Positions 19,336-61,907 of a stretch of 64,000 bases of DNA are shown one piece after another. The notes under the pieces were generated by a model. It ran no database searches, was not told where the DNA came from, and was given only the letters and a program-made list of their open reading frames with translations. Positions within the stretch are counted from its first letter, which is position 1. Every line of letters starts with the position of its first letter. Source of the stretch: an uncultured delta proteobacterium (lineage in GTDB: Bacteria; Desulfobacterota; Desulfobacteria; Desulfobacterales; B30-G6); the NCBI GenBank assembly GCA_963823335.1, contig CAWGLD010000004.1, forward strand, positions 320,001-384,000, read 5' to 3'. The position numbers and the translations under genes were made by a program.

Positions 19336-20322
19336 TTATATTTCGGTTTTGATCGATATTTCCAGCGATTCGCGATATCGCTCGATCAACTCCAGGGCTT
19401 GTTCTTCGGTGGAGATACGTTTGATGGATTCACGAAAATGTCTGGCGTGGGGCAAGCCTTTCACGAACCAGGCAAGTCTGCTGCGCATCATATAGCAGGC
19501 CTGTTCCTCACCAAAATAAACCACGGAAGCCCCCAGGTAGCGTTTCATCATGCAAAATCGCGCTGGGAGATCGGTTTCCAAAGACTCCCGGCCTTTCAGC
19601 AAGGCGTTAATCTGTTCGAATATCCATGGATTGCCGATCGCCGCCCGCCCCACCATTATGGCATCGCAACCGGTTTCCGTCACCATCCGGATCGCGTCCC
19701 GGGCTGTGACAATATCGCCGTTGCCTATGACCGGTATGGATACCATGCGCTTGATCTCAGATATGACCTGCCAGTCAGCCCGACCTTTAAAACCCTGTGA
19801 CGCCAGTCGGGGGTGAATGGCTATCGCATCCACCCCTTCCCTCTCCGCGATTGCCGCAATGATCCGCGCATCCTCCCCGTTGCTTTCCCAGCCAGTCCTG
19901 ATTTTGATTGTCAAGGGTATCTTGATTGCCGCGCGAACTGACCTGATAACGGCTTCCGCCAGGTCGGGTTGTTTCATCAGAGCTGCCCCGGAACCGCTTT
20001 TCAATACCTTTTTCACCGAACAGCCAAAGTTGATGTCGACAATATCGGCCCCGGATAATTCAACGATTTTTGCCGCCGCGGCCATAATGTCCGGATCCGA
20101 CCCGAAAATCTGCACCGAGAGAGGTTTTTCCTCAGCTTCACTCTCCAGAAGTTTCTCGGTTTTTGCGGATTGATGGACAAGCCCGTTGGAACTGATCATC
20201 TCCGAGCATACAAGACCGCACCCCGCTTCTTTTGCAATCAGACGCATGGGCAGGTTGGTAATACCGGCCAGGGGGGCCAGAACCGTGACATTGTCTAATT
20301 TGACGTTTCCAATTTGCAGCAT
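19336..20322 (-). CDS. dusB: tRNA-dihydrouridine synthase B
   Basis: LAPLAG, QIFG, DINFGC, TIKIR, GNGDI and MVGR motifs. Confidence 0.93.
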   Translation of the reverse strand: MLQIGNVKLDNVTVLAPLAGITNLPMRLIAKEAGCGLVCSEMISSNGLVHQSAKTEKLLESEAEEKPLSVQIFGSDPDIMAAAAKIVELSGADIVDINFGCSVKKVLKSGSGAALMKQPDLAEAVIRSVRAAIKIPLTIKIRTGWESNGEDARIIAAIAEREGVDAIAIHPRLASQGFKGRADWQVISEIKRMVSIPVIGNGDIVTARDAIRMVTETGCDAIMVGRAAIGNPWIFEQINALLKGRESLETDLPARFCMMKRYLGASVVYFGEEQACYMMRSRLAWFVKGLPHARHFRESIKRISTEEQALELIERYRESLEISIKTEI

Positions 20323-20555
20323 GTTGTTATCTCGAGTATAAAAATGGATCTTCTCCCGGTTAGTCGGGAGAAAGGGCTAAAGGGTTCAAGGATTCAAGGG
20401 TTTGTTTTTCAAGGATTTGATCATCGTTTTTAGTCAATCAAATCGAGAGATTGTCAAGCTTGCCGTAGCTGCAAGAAAGATGCCGTCCCGCTATAGTGGA
20501 CTATGCGGTATGGCATCTGACACAGCAGATGCGGTAAGATCGACAATCTCTCAGC

Positions 20556-21413
20556 TCAGGCGGGGTTTGCATAGCAGTACAGACAACTATGATAACAGGG
20601 CTGCCGGCTGTAGGAACCGATATCCACGGATTTAAAACAACCGCAACCCGCTTTTACCCGCTGCCCGGAATCCTTTCCCAGGGAAAGACGCCCGCCAAAC
20701 AGTTTCATGATCAGGTCATTGGGTATACAGGCGCTTTTGCCTACCGGCGCATCATCAGCAAGCCCTTCCAGCACCTCCCTTTCACAGCAGGTTTGCAGCC
20801 AGATCCCCAGGGGCCCGAGTATACGGCTCATGTCTCCCAGGACACGAATTTTATTTTGCACGGGAACATCCACGAAATCAAGACCCGTCCGCCTGGTCAG
20901 TCGCTTCTTGATTTTTGGATACGTGTCCATAAAGCTCGTAATACATCGTTTGATACCCATGGACGCCGCTTTGTCGGCGATCATGGGAAAATCCTTCAGG
21001 TTATCTTCAATCTCATGGGTCTCTGTTCTATAGAAACAAACCGGATCAAATCGCCAGTTGATGGCCTGCGGCCCATAGTGATCGCAAAGATATTCCAGCT
21101 GCGTCAGGCGCTCCTCCAGGCGTGGCAGACCGGGCTCCAGCAGCGCAGACTCGGAATTGATGCTGAAGTTAAAAAACAGATGATAGCCATATGCCTGCAG
21201 TTGTCTGCCATACTCTCCGGAAATAAAGAGACCAAAATCTTTTGACCAGAAGACAATTGTATGCACATCCGCCGGGGAAGACGCTACAAAAAAGGTTTTA
21301 TGATGATAAGGGTTCTCCACTTCGAAAAACCCTTTACGGATGCCCTGCATAAACCAGTCCATGTAGAATGCAGGGATGTCCGTGCGGCGCGATGCGGATA
21401 TGACGGTTTTCAA
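20556..21413 (-). CDS. DUF1848 family protein
   Basis: ISASRRTDIPAFY, WRFDP and C-terminal CGC..SVDIG...CYHSCLYCYA motifs. Confidence 0.92.
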   Translation of the reverse strand: MKTVISASRRTDIPAFYMDWFMQGIRKGFFEVENPYHHKTFFVASSPADVHTIVFWSKDFGLFISGEYGRQLQAYGYHLFFNFSINSESALLEPGLPRLEERLTQLEYLCDHYGPQAINWRFDPVCFYRTETHEIEDNLKDFPMIADKAASMGIKRCITSFMDTYPKIKKRLTRRTGLDFVDVPVQNKIRVLGDMSRILGPLGIWLQTCCEREVLEGLADDAPVGKSACIPNDLIMKLFGGRLSLGKDSGQRVKAGCGCFKSVDIGSYSRQPCYHSCLYCYANPA

Positions 21414-21454
21414 TTTTTAAATCTTTTTCTGGTTTGTAAATTATTATATCCGGC

Positions 21455-21787
21455 CTAACGTTTGAAGTCTTTCAGGGATATCACGGAGCCTTTTGTTTCT
21501 GATTTGGGGTCCTTTTCAAGGAATGGATCTTTCCTGGAAATGTCTGCCGAAGGTTCCGGTGGTTCCACCAGTTCGAGTCGCATCTGTTTGCCGTCCATGG
21601 TAAATGTTTCACCATCAATATAGACGTCCCGTAAAATCCACGTAACCACCTGGGGTGGCACCTGAAGCAATAAAACTTTTACATGGTACCAGTCCGGTTT
21701 TGCATCAGGCAAAATACTTTCAATGCGTGCAAAGACCAGTGGATTTTCCTCAAAATAAACCAACACAATATCGTTTTCAGCTGCCAT
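21455..21787 (-). CDS. Hypothetical protein
   Basis: 110-aa ORF with a gggagg RBS, co-oriented with its neighbours. Confidence 0.75.
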   Translation of the reverse strand: MAAENDIVLVYFEENPLVFARIESILPDAKPDWYHVKVLLLQVPPQVVTWILRDVYIDGETFTMDGKQMRLELVEPPEPSADISRKDPFLEKDPKSETKGSVISLKDFKR

Positions 21788-21921
21788 GCGGATAAAATGC
21801 CTCCCTTTAAATCAACTTTTTTTGAGCTAGTCCGGTTAAAAAATAAGGTTCTTCTCCAATTTAGTTGGAGGAAAGGGCTCCAAAATTCGGGTCAAGAGAA
21901 ATACAGCTCGGGCTATATCTT

Positions 21922-21957
21922 ATCGAAATCGCTATCGGGATCGGGATCGGGATCGAA
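21922..21957 (+). repeat. Hexamer tandem array (ATCGNN)x6
   Basis: atcgaa atcgct atcggg atcggg atcggg atcgaa. Confidence 0.9.
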
Positions 21958-22073
21958 TTGAAGAGTACCCTGCAGCAAGCTGCAGGGAATCTTCGCGGTA
22001 AGGATTTTATCTATTTGATTCGCTCGCTAACCCCGCAGCAAGCTACGGGGAATGCGCTCGCTATTGCCGTTCA
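21958..22073 (-). mobile_element. Long copy of the palindromic PATE-like element, at the 3' end of the four-helix-bundle gene
   Basis: Two hairpins, ccctgcagcaagctgcaggg and ccccgcagcaagctacgggg; ends in ttcaa on the minus strand. Confidence 0.65.
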
Positions 22074-22456
22074 GTATAGCCGTATTCCCCGAACCCTTCC
22101 TTTACGCTATAACCCCTGCCGCCCAATCGACTAAGCATTGCAGCAATGCGGTCCAATTCACCTTTGCGCTGCCGGCTTTCTACTTTATCCAAACCTTTTC
22201 CGACTACCAAGACATCTTGGATTGCGGCACACTCCAATGCCGACCCACGCGCTATTTCGAAATATCGCCGCCGATCAGCCTTCGCTGTCTTACCGTTGCC
22301 TTCTGCAATATTAAGCGCAATCGACTGGCTGGCTCGAAGCCACTGGTCTCTTGCTGAACGATGGACGCCTCTCAGCCTGGCACACTTTTCATAAACCCAT
22401 GCGACATAGCCGATTGAAAGGCGGTAAACGTCTAATTTTTCATGACCTAATACCAT
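22061..22456 (-). CDS. Four-helix-bundle protein (23S rRNA intervening-sequence protein family, Avd-like fold)
   Basis: HEKLDVY, DQWLRASQSIALNIAEG and RYFEIARGSALEC motifs; likely start ATG 22456. Confidence 0.93.
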   Translation of the reverse strand: MVLGHEKLDVYRLSIGYVAWVYEKCARLRGVHRSARDQWLRASQSIALNIAEGNGKTAKADRRRYFEIARGSALECAAIQDVLVVGKGLDKVESRQRKGELDRIAAMLSRLGGRGYSVKEGFGEYGYTERQ

Positions 22457-22492
22457 CTCGATCCCGATCCCGATAGCGATCCCGATTTCGAC
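22457..22492 (-). repeat. Hexamer tandem array, inverted relative to 21922..21957
   Basis: Minus strand reads gtcgaa atcggg atcgct atcggg atcggg atcgag, abutting the ATG. Confidence 0.9.
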
Positions 22493-22671
22493 AAGGCTTC
22501 CACCAACAGCATTTCTACAACAAATCGGGAGAAAAGCCAAAAATAAAGATAACTATACATAGTAATACGCCTGTGATCAATTTCCATAGATATTTTTTTG
22601 GATTTAAAAAAAATGTATATTCTGTTAATTGTTATAAAATGGCTGCACAATCTTATGGGGAGGTGTTCATC

Positions 22672-25392
22672 ATGGCAAAAAAATGGGTTTATCTGTTTAA
22701 CGAAGTGCATCTGGCAGAAAAACATATGAATGATGACTGGGAAGGTGTCCGTGGACTGTTGGGCGGAAAGGGCGCCAACCTTGCCGAGATGGTGCGTATC
22801 GGGGTCCCCGTACCCCCGGGCTTCACGGTGACAACGGAAGCATGCAATGCCTATCTGAAATCAGAGCATGTTTTTTCAGATGAGATTTGGGACCAGGAAA
22901 TTCAAGCCCTGCGGGTCCTTGAAAAAGAAACCGGCAAGAAATTTGGAGCCACAGACAACCCCCTGCTGGTCTCCTGTCGTTCCGGTGCCAAATTTTCCAT
23001 GCCGGGCATGATGGATACCGTGCTGAACATCGGGCTCAACGACGAGACCGCCCAGGGCATCATCAAACTTACCGGTGACGAGCGGTTTGTCTACGATGCC
23101 TACCGTCGTTTGATCCAGATGTTCGGCAGCGTGGTCATGGGCCTGTCAGACGACCTGTTCGAGCACGTCATCACACGCTACCGCAGAAAGGCCAGGGTAG
23201 AAAATGACTCCCAGCTGACGGCAGAAGACTGGAAAGACATCACCCAGGAATTCAAAGCCATATTCCGACGCCACGCCAGTCATGAATTTCCCATTGACCC
23301 GTACGAGCAGCTCATTCTGGCCACGGAAGCTGTCTTTAAAAGCTGGAACGGAAAACGGGCCGTGGACTATCGAAAGGCATCGGGTATCCCCCACGACCTG
23401 GGTACGGCGGTCAGTATCGTCACCATGGTGTTCGGAAACATGGGAGATAACTGCGCCACGGGCGTGGCCATGACCCGTAACGGCTCAAGCGGTGAAAAAA
23501 TGATCGAGGGTGACTATCTGACCAATGCCCAGGGTGAGGACGTGGTAGCCGGCATCCGCCTAACAAAAGATATCTCCCAGCTGAAAGAAGAGATGCCTGA
23601 GGCCTACAAGGAATTTGAAGACATTGCCGGCCGTCTGGAAAATCACTATCGTGACATGCAGGATGTCGAGTTTACCATAGAAAACGGGAAACTCTGGATG
23701 TTGCAGACCCGTGACGGCAAGCGAACCGCCCAGTCCGCCGTGCGTATCGCCGTGGAAATGATGGAAGAAGGACTCATCAGCAAAAAAGAGGCCGTGTTGC
23801 GCGTTACACCGGCACAGGTCGATTTCTTTCTGCACCCCCAGTTCAGTATCGAAGCGGTTCACGTGGCCAAGGAGTTGGGGAAACACTTCGCCTCCGGTCT
23901 GAACGTGTCTCCCGGAGCCGCTCTCGGGGTGGTTGCATTCGATGCGGACCTGGCCGAAACATGGGCCAAGCAGGAAGGTAAGAAGGTCATTATGGTACGC
24001 CCGGAAACAAAGCCGGATGATGTGCACGGCATGCTGGCTGCAGAAGGCATCATTACCAGCCGCGGCGGCCGGACCAGCCATGCGGCCCTGGTGGCAAGAC
24101 AATTCGGGAAACCGGCTGTGGTGGGTGTTTCAGCCCTGATGATCGATTTGGCCAAACGCGAAATGCATGTGGGCCAAACGGTTATCAAGGAGGGCGAGTG
24201 GGTTTCCATTGACGGCACGGAAGGGGACATATTTGTCGGCAAGCTGGAAACCACAATACCGGACATAAAAGACCCCTGGCTGGAAAAACTTCTCAGCTGG
24301 GCAGATGAGTACCGCCGCCTGGGTGTGTGGGCCAATGCGGATTATCCGGCGGATGCGCGCAGAGCAAGGGATTATGGTGCGGAAGGTATCGGTCTCTGCA
24401 GATCCGAGCACATGTTCTTCGAATCAGAACGCCTACCGCATGTCCAGAAAATGATCATGACGGATCTGCCCATCGAAAGAAAGGAGGCCTTGGATGCCGT
24501 GCTCCCCTTTCAGCGGGACGATTTTGCCGGTCTTTTCCGTGCCATGGACGGCTTACCGGTTATCATCCGCCTTCTCGATCCACCCCTGCATGAATTTCTT
24601 CCCAATAACATCGATTTGATGCGCGAGCTTTCCGACCTCAAAATTCGTCTTCAACATGCAGGAACGTTGAGTGACATCGATGTGCTCCTGGACCAGGTAA
24701 AAGAAAAAGAGCGGATCCTCAAACGCGTGGAAGGTCTGCGGGAAGAGAATCCCATGCTCGGATTGAGGGGCGTGCGGCTGGGTATCCACATCCCCGAGCT
24801 GACCACCATGCAGGTTCGTGCCATTTTCGAGGCTGCCTGTCTCGTTACCCGGGAGGGGATCACGGTCTATCCGGAGGTCATGATACCCCTGACGAGCCAT
24901 GTCAACGAACTCGCCGTTCAACGCAAGGTTCTGGAGGCAGAGGCCCTGAAGGTGATGAAAGAAAAGGACCTTACCATCGATTACAAGTTCGGCACCATGA
25001 TCGAGATTCCCCGTGCAGCCCTGACAGCGGATAAGATCGCGCAATACGCACAGTTTTTTTCCTTCGGAACCAATGACCTGACCCAGACAACTTTCGGAAT
25101 CTCGCGTGACGATGCCGAAGCCAGTTTCATGATTGAATACATGGAAAACGGCATTCTACCGGACAACCCCTTTGCCACCATCGACAAGGACGGCGTCGGG
25201 GAACTCATGCGCATTGCCGTCGCTAAAGGGCGCTCTGTCAACCCGGATCTGGAGTGTGGCATCTGTGGTGAGCACGGCGGGGAACCGCAGTCGATTCAGC
25301 TTTGCCATGACCTGGGGTTGACCTATGTTTCCTGTTCGCCTTTCAGGGTGCCGATTGCACGTCTGGCAGCGGCCCATGCGGCTATTAAATAG
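22672..25392 (+). CDS. ppdK: Pyruvate, phosphate dikinase
   Basis: LLGGKGANLAEM, GGRTSHAA (phospho-His), FSFGTNDLTQ and GICGEHGG motifs; ggaggt RBS. Confidence 0.97.
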   Translation: MAKKWVYLFNEVHLAEKHMNDDWEGVRGLLGGKGANLAEMVRIGVPVPPGFTVTTEACNAYLKSEHVFSDEIWDQEIQALRVLEKETGKKFGATDNPLLVSCRSGAKFSMPGMMDTVLNIGLNDETAQGIIKLTGDERFVYDAYRRLIQMFGSVVMGLSDDLFEHVITRYRRKARVENDSQLTAEDWKDITQEFKAIFRRHASHEFPIDPYEQLILATEAVFKSWNGKRAVDYRKASGIPHDLGTAVSIVTMVFGNMGDNCATGVAMTRNGSSGEKMIEGDYLTNAQGEDVVAGIRLTKDISQLKEEMPEAYKEFEDIAGRLENHYRDMQDVEFTIENGKLWMLQTRDGKRTAQSAVRIAVEMMEEGLISKKEAVLRVTPAQVDFFLHPQFSIEAVHVAKELGKHFASGLNVSPGAALGVVAFDADLAETWAKQEGKKVIMVRPETKPDDVHGMLAAEGIITSRGGRTSHAALVARQFGKPAVVGVSALMIDLAKREMHVGQTVIKEGEWVSIDGTEGDIFVGKLETTIPDIKDPWLEKLLSWADEYRRLGVWANADYPADARRARDYGAEGIGLCRSEHMFFESERLPHVQKMIMTDLPIERKEALDAVLPFQRDDFAGLFRAMDGLPVIIRLLDPPLHEFLPNNIDLMRELSDLKIRLQHAGTLSDIDVLLDQVKEKERILKRVEGLREENPMLGLRGVRLGIHIPELTTMQVRAIFEAACLVTREGITVYPEVMIPLTSHVNELAVQRKVLEAEALKVMKEKDLTIDYKFGTMIEIPRAALTADKIAQYAQFFSFGTNDLTQTTFGISRDDAEASFMIEYMENGILPDNPFATIDKDGVGELMRIAVAKGRSVNPDLECGICGEHGGEPQSIQLCHDLGLTYVSCSPFRVPIARLAAAHAAIK

Positions 25393-48980: not shown

Positions 48981-49100
48981 GTCATTAGCCTTTCAGGCGT
49001 CATTTATCCTTCGGACGACATTTAGCCTTCGGCTGTCATTTGCACTGCGCGCGTCATTTGTCCTATCAGACGACATTTACGCTGCGCGCGTAATTCATTG
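48981..49100 (+). repeat. 18-nt-period mini-hairpin tandem array
   Basis: Six units of g(t/a)catt(t/a) plus a short hairpin, several with a cTTCGg loop. Confidence 0.8.
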
Positions 49101-61824: not shown

Positions 61825-61907
61825 ATCATTTAGCCTTCGGCTGTAATTTGCCTTTCAGGCGTCATTTGCACTTCGTGCGATATTTGCCCTTCGGACGTCA
61901 TTAATTG
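61825..61907 (+). repeat. 18-nt-period mini-hairpin tandem array (second locus)
   Basis: Four units homologous to those at 48981..49100. Confidence 0.8.

Follow-up and report, generated by a model that had tools for sequence, protein, structure and literature searches.

We analysed a 64,000-nucleotide stretch of DNA (the window) from an uncultured delta proteobacterium of the order Desulfobacterales (GenBank assembly GCA_963823335.1, contig CAWGLD010000004.1, positions 320,001 to 384,000), in which a small gene is enclosed by inverted arrays of a hexanucleotide repeat. Coordinates refer to the window unless a contig of the assembly (C1 to C7) is named. The gene lies on the minus strand at 22061..22456, with its ATG at 22456-22454, and encodes a protein of 131 amino acids (aa). 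The protein matches the PF05635 (23S_rRNA_IVP) profile with 67.6 bits (cut-off 33.8, E 1.3e-18) and TIGR02436 with 62.6 bits (cut-off 24, E 3.4e-17). Its AlphaFold2 model (predicted local distance difference test, pLDDT, 83.2) is a four-helix bundle with helices at residues 9-25, 30-55, 59-85 and 91-111, followed in proteins of this type by a tail that is predicted to be disordered. We refer to this protein and its close relatives as type A.

A Foldseek search with the model retrieved XCC0516 (2gsc) and BT_0352 (2rld), with template modelling (TM) scores of 0.89 and 0.87, and the same two were the closest solved sequences in phmmer (E 5.5e-6); each entry contains five chains. Next in the Foldseek search was Avd, the accessory protein of diversity-generating retroelements (DGRs; entries 4dwl and 8ube), with TM scores of 0.80-0.82 at 8-9% identity. 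An earlier sequence-only reading of the window had related the fold to Avd and had seen neither ribosomal RNA (rRNA) nor a reverse transcriptase at the locus, and both statements hold. The genes within 2.5 kb are a 110-aa open reading frame (ORF) without a family, DUF1848, Dus and PpdK, none of them a reverse transcriptase. The single 23S gene of the genome (C5:36999-40034) contains no such ORF, and all five genomic copies of the element described below lie elsewhere. PADLOC gave no match for the type-A protein, for one protein of the related type B (see below) or for the 110-aa neighbour.

The arms that enclose the gene, at 21919..21956 and 22458..22495, are 38 nt long, 87% complementary and 501 nt apart. 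Tandem Repeats Finder (TRF) describes both as hexamer arrays (21934-21955, ATCGGG, 3.7 copies; 22455-22486, ATCCCG, 5.3 copies). Read on the gene strand, which is the minus strand, the 5' arm is a non-coding leader of the form (ATCGNN)n, with the sequence GTCGAA ATCGGG ATCGCT ATCGGG ATCGGG ATCGAG running directly into the ATG. The 3' arm, (GATNNC)n on the same strand, is the mirror of the 5' arm, one of its units being displaced. The ungapped flank-pairing score at the locus is 21, compared to a median of 8 and a maximum of 11 for 300 random 315-bp windows of the same genome. This confirms that the enclosing arrays seen in the sequence-only reading are real and that they match far beyond chance. 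That reading had placed one array at the ATG and the other beyond the 3' end of the gene. The first placement stands, as the array at 22457-22492 abuts the ATG; the second describes the present state of a 3' arm that is ancestrally coding.

In the window copy the 3' array begins about 104 nt beyond the present stop codon because a 112-nt repetitive extragenic palindromic (REP)-like repeat now interrupts the gene near its 3' end. The insertion (21960..22071, with hairpins at 21967-21990 and 22030-22053) supplies the present stop codon. It is found in four of the five copies in the genome, including that of the window, and is missing from the C7 copy and from a copy in the relative G007; one RNA-library contig joins 21957 to 22070 and corresponds to the insertion-free form. 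In the C7 copy the ORF continues through the array as ...EFDPDPDPDSDFDKI / ...EYGYTEFDPDPDPDSDFDKI up to a stop codon. Judged by this reading frame, the 3' array is ancestrally coding and is read as an (Asp-x)n C-terminal tail. The REP-like repeat gives 185 high-scoring segment pairs at 151 places in the genome; repeats of this kind, about 112 nt long with two hairpins (CCCYGCAGCAAGCTRCGGGG), are abundant here and in most of the genus relatives.

The gene and its arrays form the inner part of a 692-bp element (21847..22538, minus strand). A PF05635 search of the genome (4.37 Mb in 11 contigs, 93.9% complete) gave 22 matches, five of them with equal score, and these five loci were aligned with 700 nt of flanking sequence to find the element boundaries. 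The five copies, one each on C2 and C7 and three on C4, are about 692 bp long and 99.3-100% identical in pairwise comparison. All are intergenic, and the DNA outside them is unrelated. Each copy is flanked by its own 8-bp direct duplication (5/5) of an A/T-rich target, which on the gene strand reads AAAAAAGA, ATATTTTA, AAAAAAAT, TTATTTTT (window) and AAAAAAAT. In the window the duplicated 8-mer, AAAAATAA, occupies 21839..21846 and 22539..22546, directly outside both ends. The ends are terminal inverted repeats that pair imperfectly: the gene-distal repeat (21847..21876, plus strand) starts with GGTTCTTCTCCAATTTAGTTGGAGG... and contains a small hairpin, CTCCAA-N5-TTGGAG; the gene-proximal repeat (22509..22538, minus strand) starts with GGCTTTTCTCCCGATTTGTTGTAG.... 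The site of the C4:31203 copy is uninterrupted in the relative G004, with one copy of the target (ATACTTTA) and homologous DNA on both sides. The number of array units differs between the copies. The multiple copies, their differing 8-bp duplications and the empty site show that the element has recently been mobile.

The insertion in the window occupies an A/T-rich site 127 bp upstream of ppdK, in the promoter region of this gene. Both flanking genes are kept in six genus relatives, none of which has a PF05635 gene between them (0/6). Three relatives (G007, G004 and G006) carry a decayed element of another subfamily near the same A-rich spot. A base-exact empty site at the ppdK locus was not obtained, the intergenic region being too diverged in the relatives, and no contig of the sediment libraries bridges an empty ppdK site. 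The content of the ppdK-upstream region thus varies between relatives, and the gene is not syntenically fixed. The sequence-only reading had proposed that the ORF and its inverted arms make up a mobile unit. Mobility is borne out by the five copies with their own duplications and by the empty site in G004; the microsatellite arms are not the ends of the unit, which in this genome are terminal repeats of the ISL3 type lying 70-45 nt further out (21847 and 22538).

Two further observations concern insertion. A/T-rich sites that contain type-A copies in the genome of the window are occupied in G007 (L052, L047) and G006 (L049) by other elements whose ends are related, or by an end-to-end remnant of 35 bp, which suggests that these sites are insertion hot spots. 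One RNA-library contig (run X15, depth 11.8) joins 22541 to 21850, so that the element ends meet head to tail with a few bases between them; this single contig could represent two insertions next to each other or the junction of a circle, such as forms in copy-out-paste-in transposition.

We suspected the ISL3 family because the ends start with GGCTCTTC and the target duplication is 8 bp long. According to PMC11448079, an ISL3 insertion sequence (IS) and a MITE (miniature inverted-repeat transposable element) of Microcystis have GGCTCTTCG ends and 8-nt direct repeats. Matches to PF01610, the ISL3 transposase, were found in 12 of 61 genomes sampled from the same order. Two ISL3-family ISs with PF01610 genes (L171 and L170) have ends of the form GGTTCTTCTCC(A/G)ATTTAGTTGGAG. 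The ends of the L171 IS (259-1611) are identical to the gene-distal end of the window element at 24/24 and 23/24 positions; both ends of the L170 IS (1466-2821), which is flanked by the 8-bp duplication TTAATCTT, are identical to it at 23/24. At the gene-proximal end, 17-18 of 24 positions agree with the ISL3 IS ends. Within its 692 bp the element has the 131-aa PF05635 gene and no room for an ISL3 transposase gene; short overlapping ORFs were not scanned. By its ends, the element is a transposase-less derivative of an IS of the L171/L170 type, namely a MITE or mobile insertion cassette with one gene. The term mobile insertion cassette is associated with IS231/MIC231. The element must be moved in trans by an ISL3-family transposase recognising its terminal repeats. 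Because the five copies are virtually identical, we infer that such a transposase was recently present or is encoded in unassembled sequence. The transposase-like ORFs of the genome read as IS110-like, IS1182-like and IS5-like, from their translations and without a library scan. Among them, the IS1182-like pair, whose ends could be read clearly, has ends unrelated to those of the element.

The end motif occurs 36 times in the genome of the window, 26 times in G007, 43 times in G001, 31 times in G004 and not at all in G009; a reversed control pattern gave no occurrences. Most occurrences belong to a second subfamily, which we call type B. The type-B element at C1:412354-412912 (559 bp, duplication TTATTTTT) consists, in this order, of a hairpin end, an octamer array (AGGATTCA AGGGTTCA AGGAGTCC ...), a TIGR02436 gene, an inverted octamer array and a second hairpin end. 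Most type-B copies are internally deleted and keep the two ends of the gene, with partial PF05635 matches covering model positions 1-57, 1-55, 44-105, 52-105 and 68-105; the copy at C7:1907-2161 (255 bp) has the duplication TATTTTTG. Exact 8-bp duplications flank 9 of 28 scanned ends, or 11 of 28 if one mismatch is allowed, compared to 1 of 28 for a control 8-mer (one mismatch allowed). In G009, several type-A copies have lost the middle of the gene and kept both arrays and both ends; therefore, spread does not depend on the gene in cis.

The window itself contains a second element end (GGATCTTCTCCCGGTTAGTCGGGAGAA) at 20346-20435, followed by a AAGGGTTC octamer array (TRF, 20372-20402) and by what appears, read by eye and unaligned, to be the 3' end of a type-B four-helix-bundle gene. 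This region looks like a truncated type-B element between the Dus and DUF1848 genes. Sediment DNA and RNA contigs contain type-A arrays that are just 12-39 bases apart (21943-21957 joined to 22456-22471); these gene-less array-loop-array hairpins are probably miniature derivatives in other organisms.

The type-A cassette, meaning the gene with its two arrays, extends far beyond this genus. Relatives of the protein with 67-98% identity occur at 210 places in one-genome-per-species contigs. We compared the best 80 of these loci, 77 of which have distinct upstream sequence. The 80 loci carry the labels of at least 10 phyla, among them Verrucomicrobiota, Kiritimatiellota, Lentisphaerota, Acidobacteriota, Nitrospirota, Planctomycetota, Bacteroidota, Gammaproteobacteria, Desulfobacterota and Hydrogenedentes; several relatives are part of a complete genome or of contigs 1-4 Mb long, and the bin labels of short contigs may be wrong. 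Upstream of the ATG in these 77 loci, the median length of the longest in-phase ATCG chain is 5 units (at least 4 in 59 of 77), and the median distance from its end to the ATG is 7 nt. At the 3' end, the corresponding CGAT mirror chain has the same median length of 5 units (at least 4 in 58 of 77). None of 223 control windows has an in-phase ATCG chain of 3 units or more. The variable dinucleotides are also mirrored, with AA, GG, CT and GT on the 5' side and TT, CC, AG and AC on the 3' side. No relative of the type-A protein was found in plasmid, phage or IMG/VR viral-contig collections.

The two arrays differ in their relation to the reading frame. The phases of the 5' array relative to the ORF are distributed 7/24/33; because there is no consistent frame, this array is a leader and not coding. 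In the (Asp-x)n tail, the Asp codons are GAT in 356 cases and GAC in 14, compared to 283 and 235 in the gene body, and in 275 of 299 cases the x codon ends in C, compared to 29% in the body. This codon choice shows the tail to be fixed at the nucleotide level, as would be expected from a nucleic-acid constraint. The median ratio of non-synonymous to synonymous substitution (dN/dS) is 0.059 over 1199 pairs of type-A relatives, at a proportion of synonymous differences (pS) of 0.755, which is near saturation. By this measure the protein body is under strong purifying selection. Because dN/dS is low and the arrays and tail codons are conserved, both the protein and the arrays are under selection.

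Two sets of relatives deserve mention. One Verrucomicrobiota genome has five near-identical type-A copies (L060, L063, L064, L067 and L100) without ISL3 ends. The repeated unit begins with CGTTGGGGCAT, 10 nt upstream of the 5' array, and extends to ...GAGCTTTGACGTT; its outer inverted pair, GTTGGGGC and GCCCCAAC, encodes a conserved K-P/S-Q-Q/P motif. This genome also prompted us to consider integron attC sites (RYYYAAC ... GTTRRRY). In a crude test, a perfect NNNNNAAC/GTTNNNNN pair was present at 0 of 65 loci and in 1 of 254 controls; we rejected this candidate, and the attC-like motif is better read as the outer part of a big stem. The second case is a 1132-nt contig labelled Zixibacteria (L056), which encodes a protein 98% identical to that of the element and has similar sequence on both sides of the gene. 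This is either a very recent transfer or a mis-binned contig.

Inverted arrays are not restricted to type A. In the genome of the window, inverted repeats with scores higher than any of 300 controls flank 19 of the 22 PF05635 matches. The three exceptions score 11, 8 and 7, and the latter two form an adjacent divergent pair. The two genes of this pair, which stand in tandem at C4:64077-64895, outside the window, are the only members in the genome without flanking inverted repeats around each gene. PF05635 was found in 69 of 121 genomes sampled in the phylum. Among 29 loci from different genomes, 27 could be analysed, two being too near a contig end; 25 of the 27 exceed the maximum (11) of 50 shifted control windows, and 23 score at least 13. 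The arms are again tandem arrays, up to 62 nt long, of a 6-8-nt unit that is specific to each lineage, such as AATCGTA, TTAGCTG, TTTTCTG, TAGTGAC, GGTGATT, GGTGGYC, AAGGRTTC or AACATCGA. The arms closely frame the ORF: over 32 loci, the median distance is 32 nt from the end of the 5' arm to the start codon and 26.5 nt from the stop codon to the 3' arm, which sometimes begins inside the ORF. The sequence-only reading would have been contradicted by homologues that lack inverted flanks and by a gene fixed in its place; instead, inverted tandem-repeat flanks are present in the 77 type-A relatives, in 19 of 22 paralogues and at 25 of 27 other loci, and the gene varies in presence between relatives. 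These comparisons point to a rule that appears to be new: PF05635 genes are bracketed by inverted arrays of short tandem repeats specific to the subfamily.

The predicted RNA fold of the whole element is consistent with a stem. The array stem and the terminal repeats close the element in both the minimum free energy and the centroid structure, at -263.1 kcal/mol (z -4.8, 20 shuffles); a copy without the REP-like insertion folds at -223.4 kcal/mol (z -5.5, 100 shuffles). The start codon is at the foot of the predicted array stem or inside it. In two metatranscriptome libraries, contigs cover 21835-22541 at 97-100% identity and leave the flanking host genes uncovered. These are contigs rather than reads, and the libraries may hold DNA, so we take them as a hint that the element is transcribed. 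Contig ends and uncovered parts at the arrays are uninformative, as repeats break assemblies. A promoter and terminator scan of 21700-22750 found sites that were no more numerous than in shuffled sequence, and an Rfam search of 20200-22800 gave no match at E values up to 1.

The reading that we favour, with moderate confidence, is that the locus is a selfish element of two layers: an outer transposon derived from ISL3 and an inner gene-in-stem cassette that acts as RNA. The outer layer inserted upstream of ppdK, duplicated 8 bp and has spread to five sites. The inner layer is an ancient, horizontally travelling cassette, composed of the conserved four-helix-bundle gene between its inverted arrays. 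In a transcript or in single-stranded DNA, the arrays could pair into a stem of about 33-38 bp, looping out the ORF and burying the ribosome-binding region. The stem would act at the RNA level, marking the cassette RNA for RNase III processing out of any host transcript; alternatively or in addition, translation may be coupled to stem opening, with ribosomes that reach the tail melting the stem. The repeat unit is probably a recognition element as well, because ATCG is constant across phyla. By homology with the 23S rRNA intervening sequences (IVSs), an RNA-level stem is the most likely function of the arrays, and by the same analogy the cassette stem may be cleaved by RNase III.

Several results weigh against this reading. 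PF01610 has no match in the genome of the window, which is 93.9% complete, or in five genus relatives, so that the recent movement we infer is left without an enzyme in the assembly to explain it. Covariation between the arms is weak: the median pairing is 17 for an arm with its own partner and 16 for swapped partners, with the own partner best in 4 of 64 cases and in the top tenth in 16 of 64. Arm complementarity is thus largely a property of the shared unit. Ratios of G.U to A.C mismatches on the gene strand are 32:37, 30:16 and 6:7; because there is no sense-strand bias, RNA of the gene strand is not singled out over DNA. The invariant ATCG core at a pS of 0.755 exceeds the needs of a plain stem, and its retention despite saturated synonymous sites points to recognition of the unit by the cassette protein or a nuclease. 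Finally, the Coxiella S23p protein seems not to be made, according to the sections of PMC4990558 on this IVS, and by analogy the roles of protein and stem may be separable.

In the strongest alternative, the arrays would be iteron-like and bind their own four-helix-bundle protein, as DNA or RNA, with a unit of its own for each subfamily and with pairing as a secondary matter. The binding could serve autoregulation, RNA protection or cassette marking, and is compatible with the stem model. In 77 relatives, about 5 units on each side of the gene retain the ATCG core although synonymous sites are saturated, and every subfamily has a different unit; the missing G.U strand bias and the weak partner-specific covariation also speak for this explanation. 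The closest solved relatives, 2gsc and 2rld, are five-chain entries, and Avd is part of a DGR ribonucleoprotein according to the entry titles, so binding of the type-A protein to its own repeats is plausible by analogy. However, unit lengths of 6, 7 and 8 nt are at odds with a single fixed geometry of protein and nucleic acid, protein clades would become linked to units through co-inheritance alone, and the arrays are kept in derivatives from which the gene has been deleted. The apparent lack of expression of the Coxiella protein, in the same sections of PMC4990558, also speaks against a protein-based role. We regard binding as the primary function of the arrays as possible, with low confidence.

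A broader proposal would combine stem and protein across the family: PF05635 genes would not be normal genes of the cell but the cargo of widespread, undescribed stem-loop cassettes that recognise themselves, and a pentameric protein would read about five units of its own arms, in RNA or hairpin DNA. Acting as a maintenance or mobility factor, it would let the cassette ride on IS skeletons, invade rRNA helices (the classical IVSs) and cross phyla. We think this unlikely.

Quite unlikely, in our view, is a mechanism at the DNA level in which the cassette itself is the primary mobile unit. A hairpin or cruciform of the arrays would be recognised by a host enzyme or an unknown one, moving the cassette into rRNA helices, IS skeletons and intergenic sites, and the ISL3 ends would be its current vehicle in this genus. 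The same cassette does occur in unrelated flanks in many phyla, and the five Verrucomicrobiota copies, in which the unit begins 10 nt upstream of the 5' array, have no ISL3 ends. In the genome of the window, two cassette subfamilies are found inside the same type of ISL3 end. The miniature forms in sediment metagenomes, in which a short spacer separates the arrays, the variable array copy number and the lack of a sense-strand G.U bias also speak for this mechanism. But no enzyme is known and none is encoded, no relative is on plasmids, phages or viral contigs, and the attC-like reading of the ends failed (0/65). Moreover, a purely DNA-based signal would have no need for the close linkage of the 5' array to the start codon (median gap, 7 nt) or of the 3' array to the end of the ORF.

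It is very improbable that the arrays have no nucleic-acid function, the 3' array being merely an acidic low-complexity tail and the 5' array a slippage-prone microsatellite that resembles its complement by chance: unit numbers do change between copies and the tail is predicted to be disordered, but the tail codons are 96% GAT and 92% NNC, the position and unit of the non-coding 5' array are conserved across phyla, and other subfamilies have unrelated units in the same inverted layout.

MITEs, ISL3 elements, the IVS stem and the Avd fold are already known. In open-access papers and on bioRxiv, we found no description of the bracketing rule, of a recently mobile IVS-type cassette outside rRNA or of a nucleotide-constrained (Asp-x)n tail. 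Besides the rule, two things appear to be new: the occurrence of an IVS-type cassette as a multi-copy, recently mobile element that lies outside rRNA, and a nucleotide-level constraint that writes an (Asp-x)n tail. The inverted-array signature is a simple sequence marker for finding such cassettes. There are also consequences for annotation: automatic ORF prediction may place the start of the gene further upstream, taking in the 5' array, and the (Asp-x)n tail is shaped by a nucleic-acid constraint. Elsewhere in the window, two period-18 tandem arrays (49001-49079 and 61826-61902) have similar units, CATTTATCCTTCGGACGA and TCATTTGCCCTTCGGGCG, at 4.3 copies each.

Of the known mobile elements, ISL3-derived MITEs and mobile insertion cassettes are most similar to the outer layer. 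They share ends beginning GG(C/T)T(C/T)TTC, an 8-bp duplication and A/T-rich targets, the absence of a transposase, internal-deletion derivatives, and autonomous ISs with the same ends in related genomes. Unlike them, the element carries a conserved, selected passenger gene with internal inverted arrays, and its deletion derivatives retain pieces of the four-helix-bundle gene rather than of a transposase gene. The Correia or NEMIS elements of Neisseria are small transposase-less inverted-repeat elements whose hairpin transcripts are cleaved by RNase III; they have no ORF in the loop, and their ends and target duplication differ from those of the element.

XCC0516 (2gsc) and BT_0352 (2rld) are solved PF05635 proteins of unknown function and the best sequence and fold matches to the type-A protein. 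Their solved chains (108-117 residues) align to the four-helix body only, and the (Asp-x)n tail has no counterpart. Avd has the fold in common with the type-A protein and, from the entry titles, is part of a ribonucleoprotein. Unlike Avd, the type-A gene has no adjacent reverse transcriptase (no search for template and variable repeats was made), and unlike a DGR, the 692-bp element has room for just one ORF.

The closest known system is the 23S rRNA IVS with an S23p/PF05635 ORF, found in Coxiella, Leptospira and others. The sections of PMC4990558 on the Coxiella IVS describe a 28-bp terminal stem, which is the target of RNase III cleavage, and GACAGAT heptamers, two or three depending on the strain, directly before the ATG of the S23p ORF. 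They further state that the origin of IVSs has been debated since 1990, with proposals that include a transposition remnant and a mobile element whose ORF aids its mobility; the latter role was proposed by Ralph and McClelland in 1993 (cited in PMC4990558). PF05635/S23p was still called functionally uncharacterised in 2024, in the part of PMC11270868 that refers to it. The locus gives a concrete handle on the question of origin, being a recently moved cassette outside rRNA with target duplications and an identifiable transposase family, and the bracketing rule makes "function unknown" testable in terms of RNA processing, translation control and repeat recognition. The element shares with the IVS its gene family, an ORF looped out by an inverted-repeat stem and, with the Coxiella IVS in particular, short tandem repeats of variable copy number before the ATG. 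In the IVS the stem-loop is excised by RNase III; the element is likened to it from its sequence and predicted fold. Unlike an IVS, the element is not in an rRNA gene, its arms are hexamer arrays of which the 3' one is translated, and its cassette lies inside ISL3-type ends with target duplications, in five copies.

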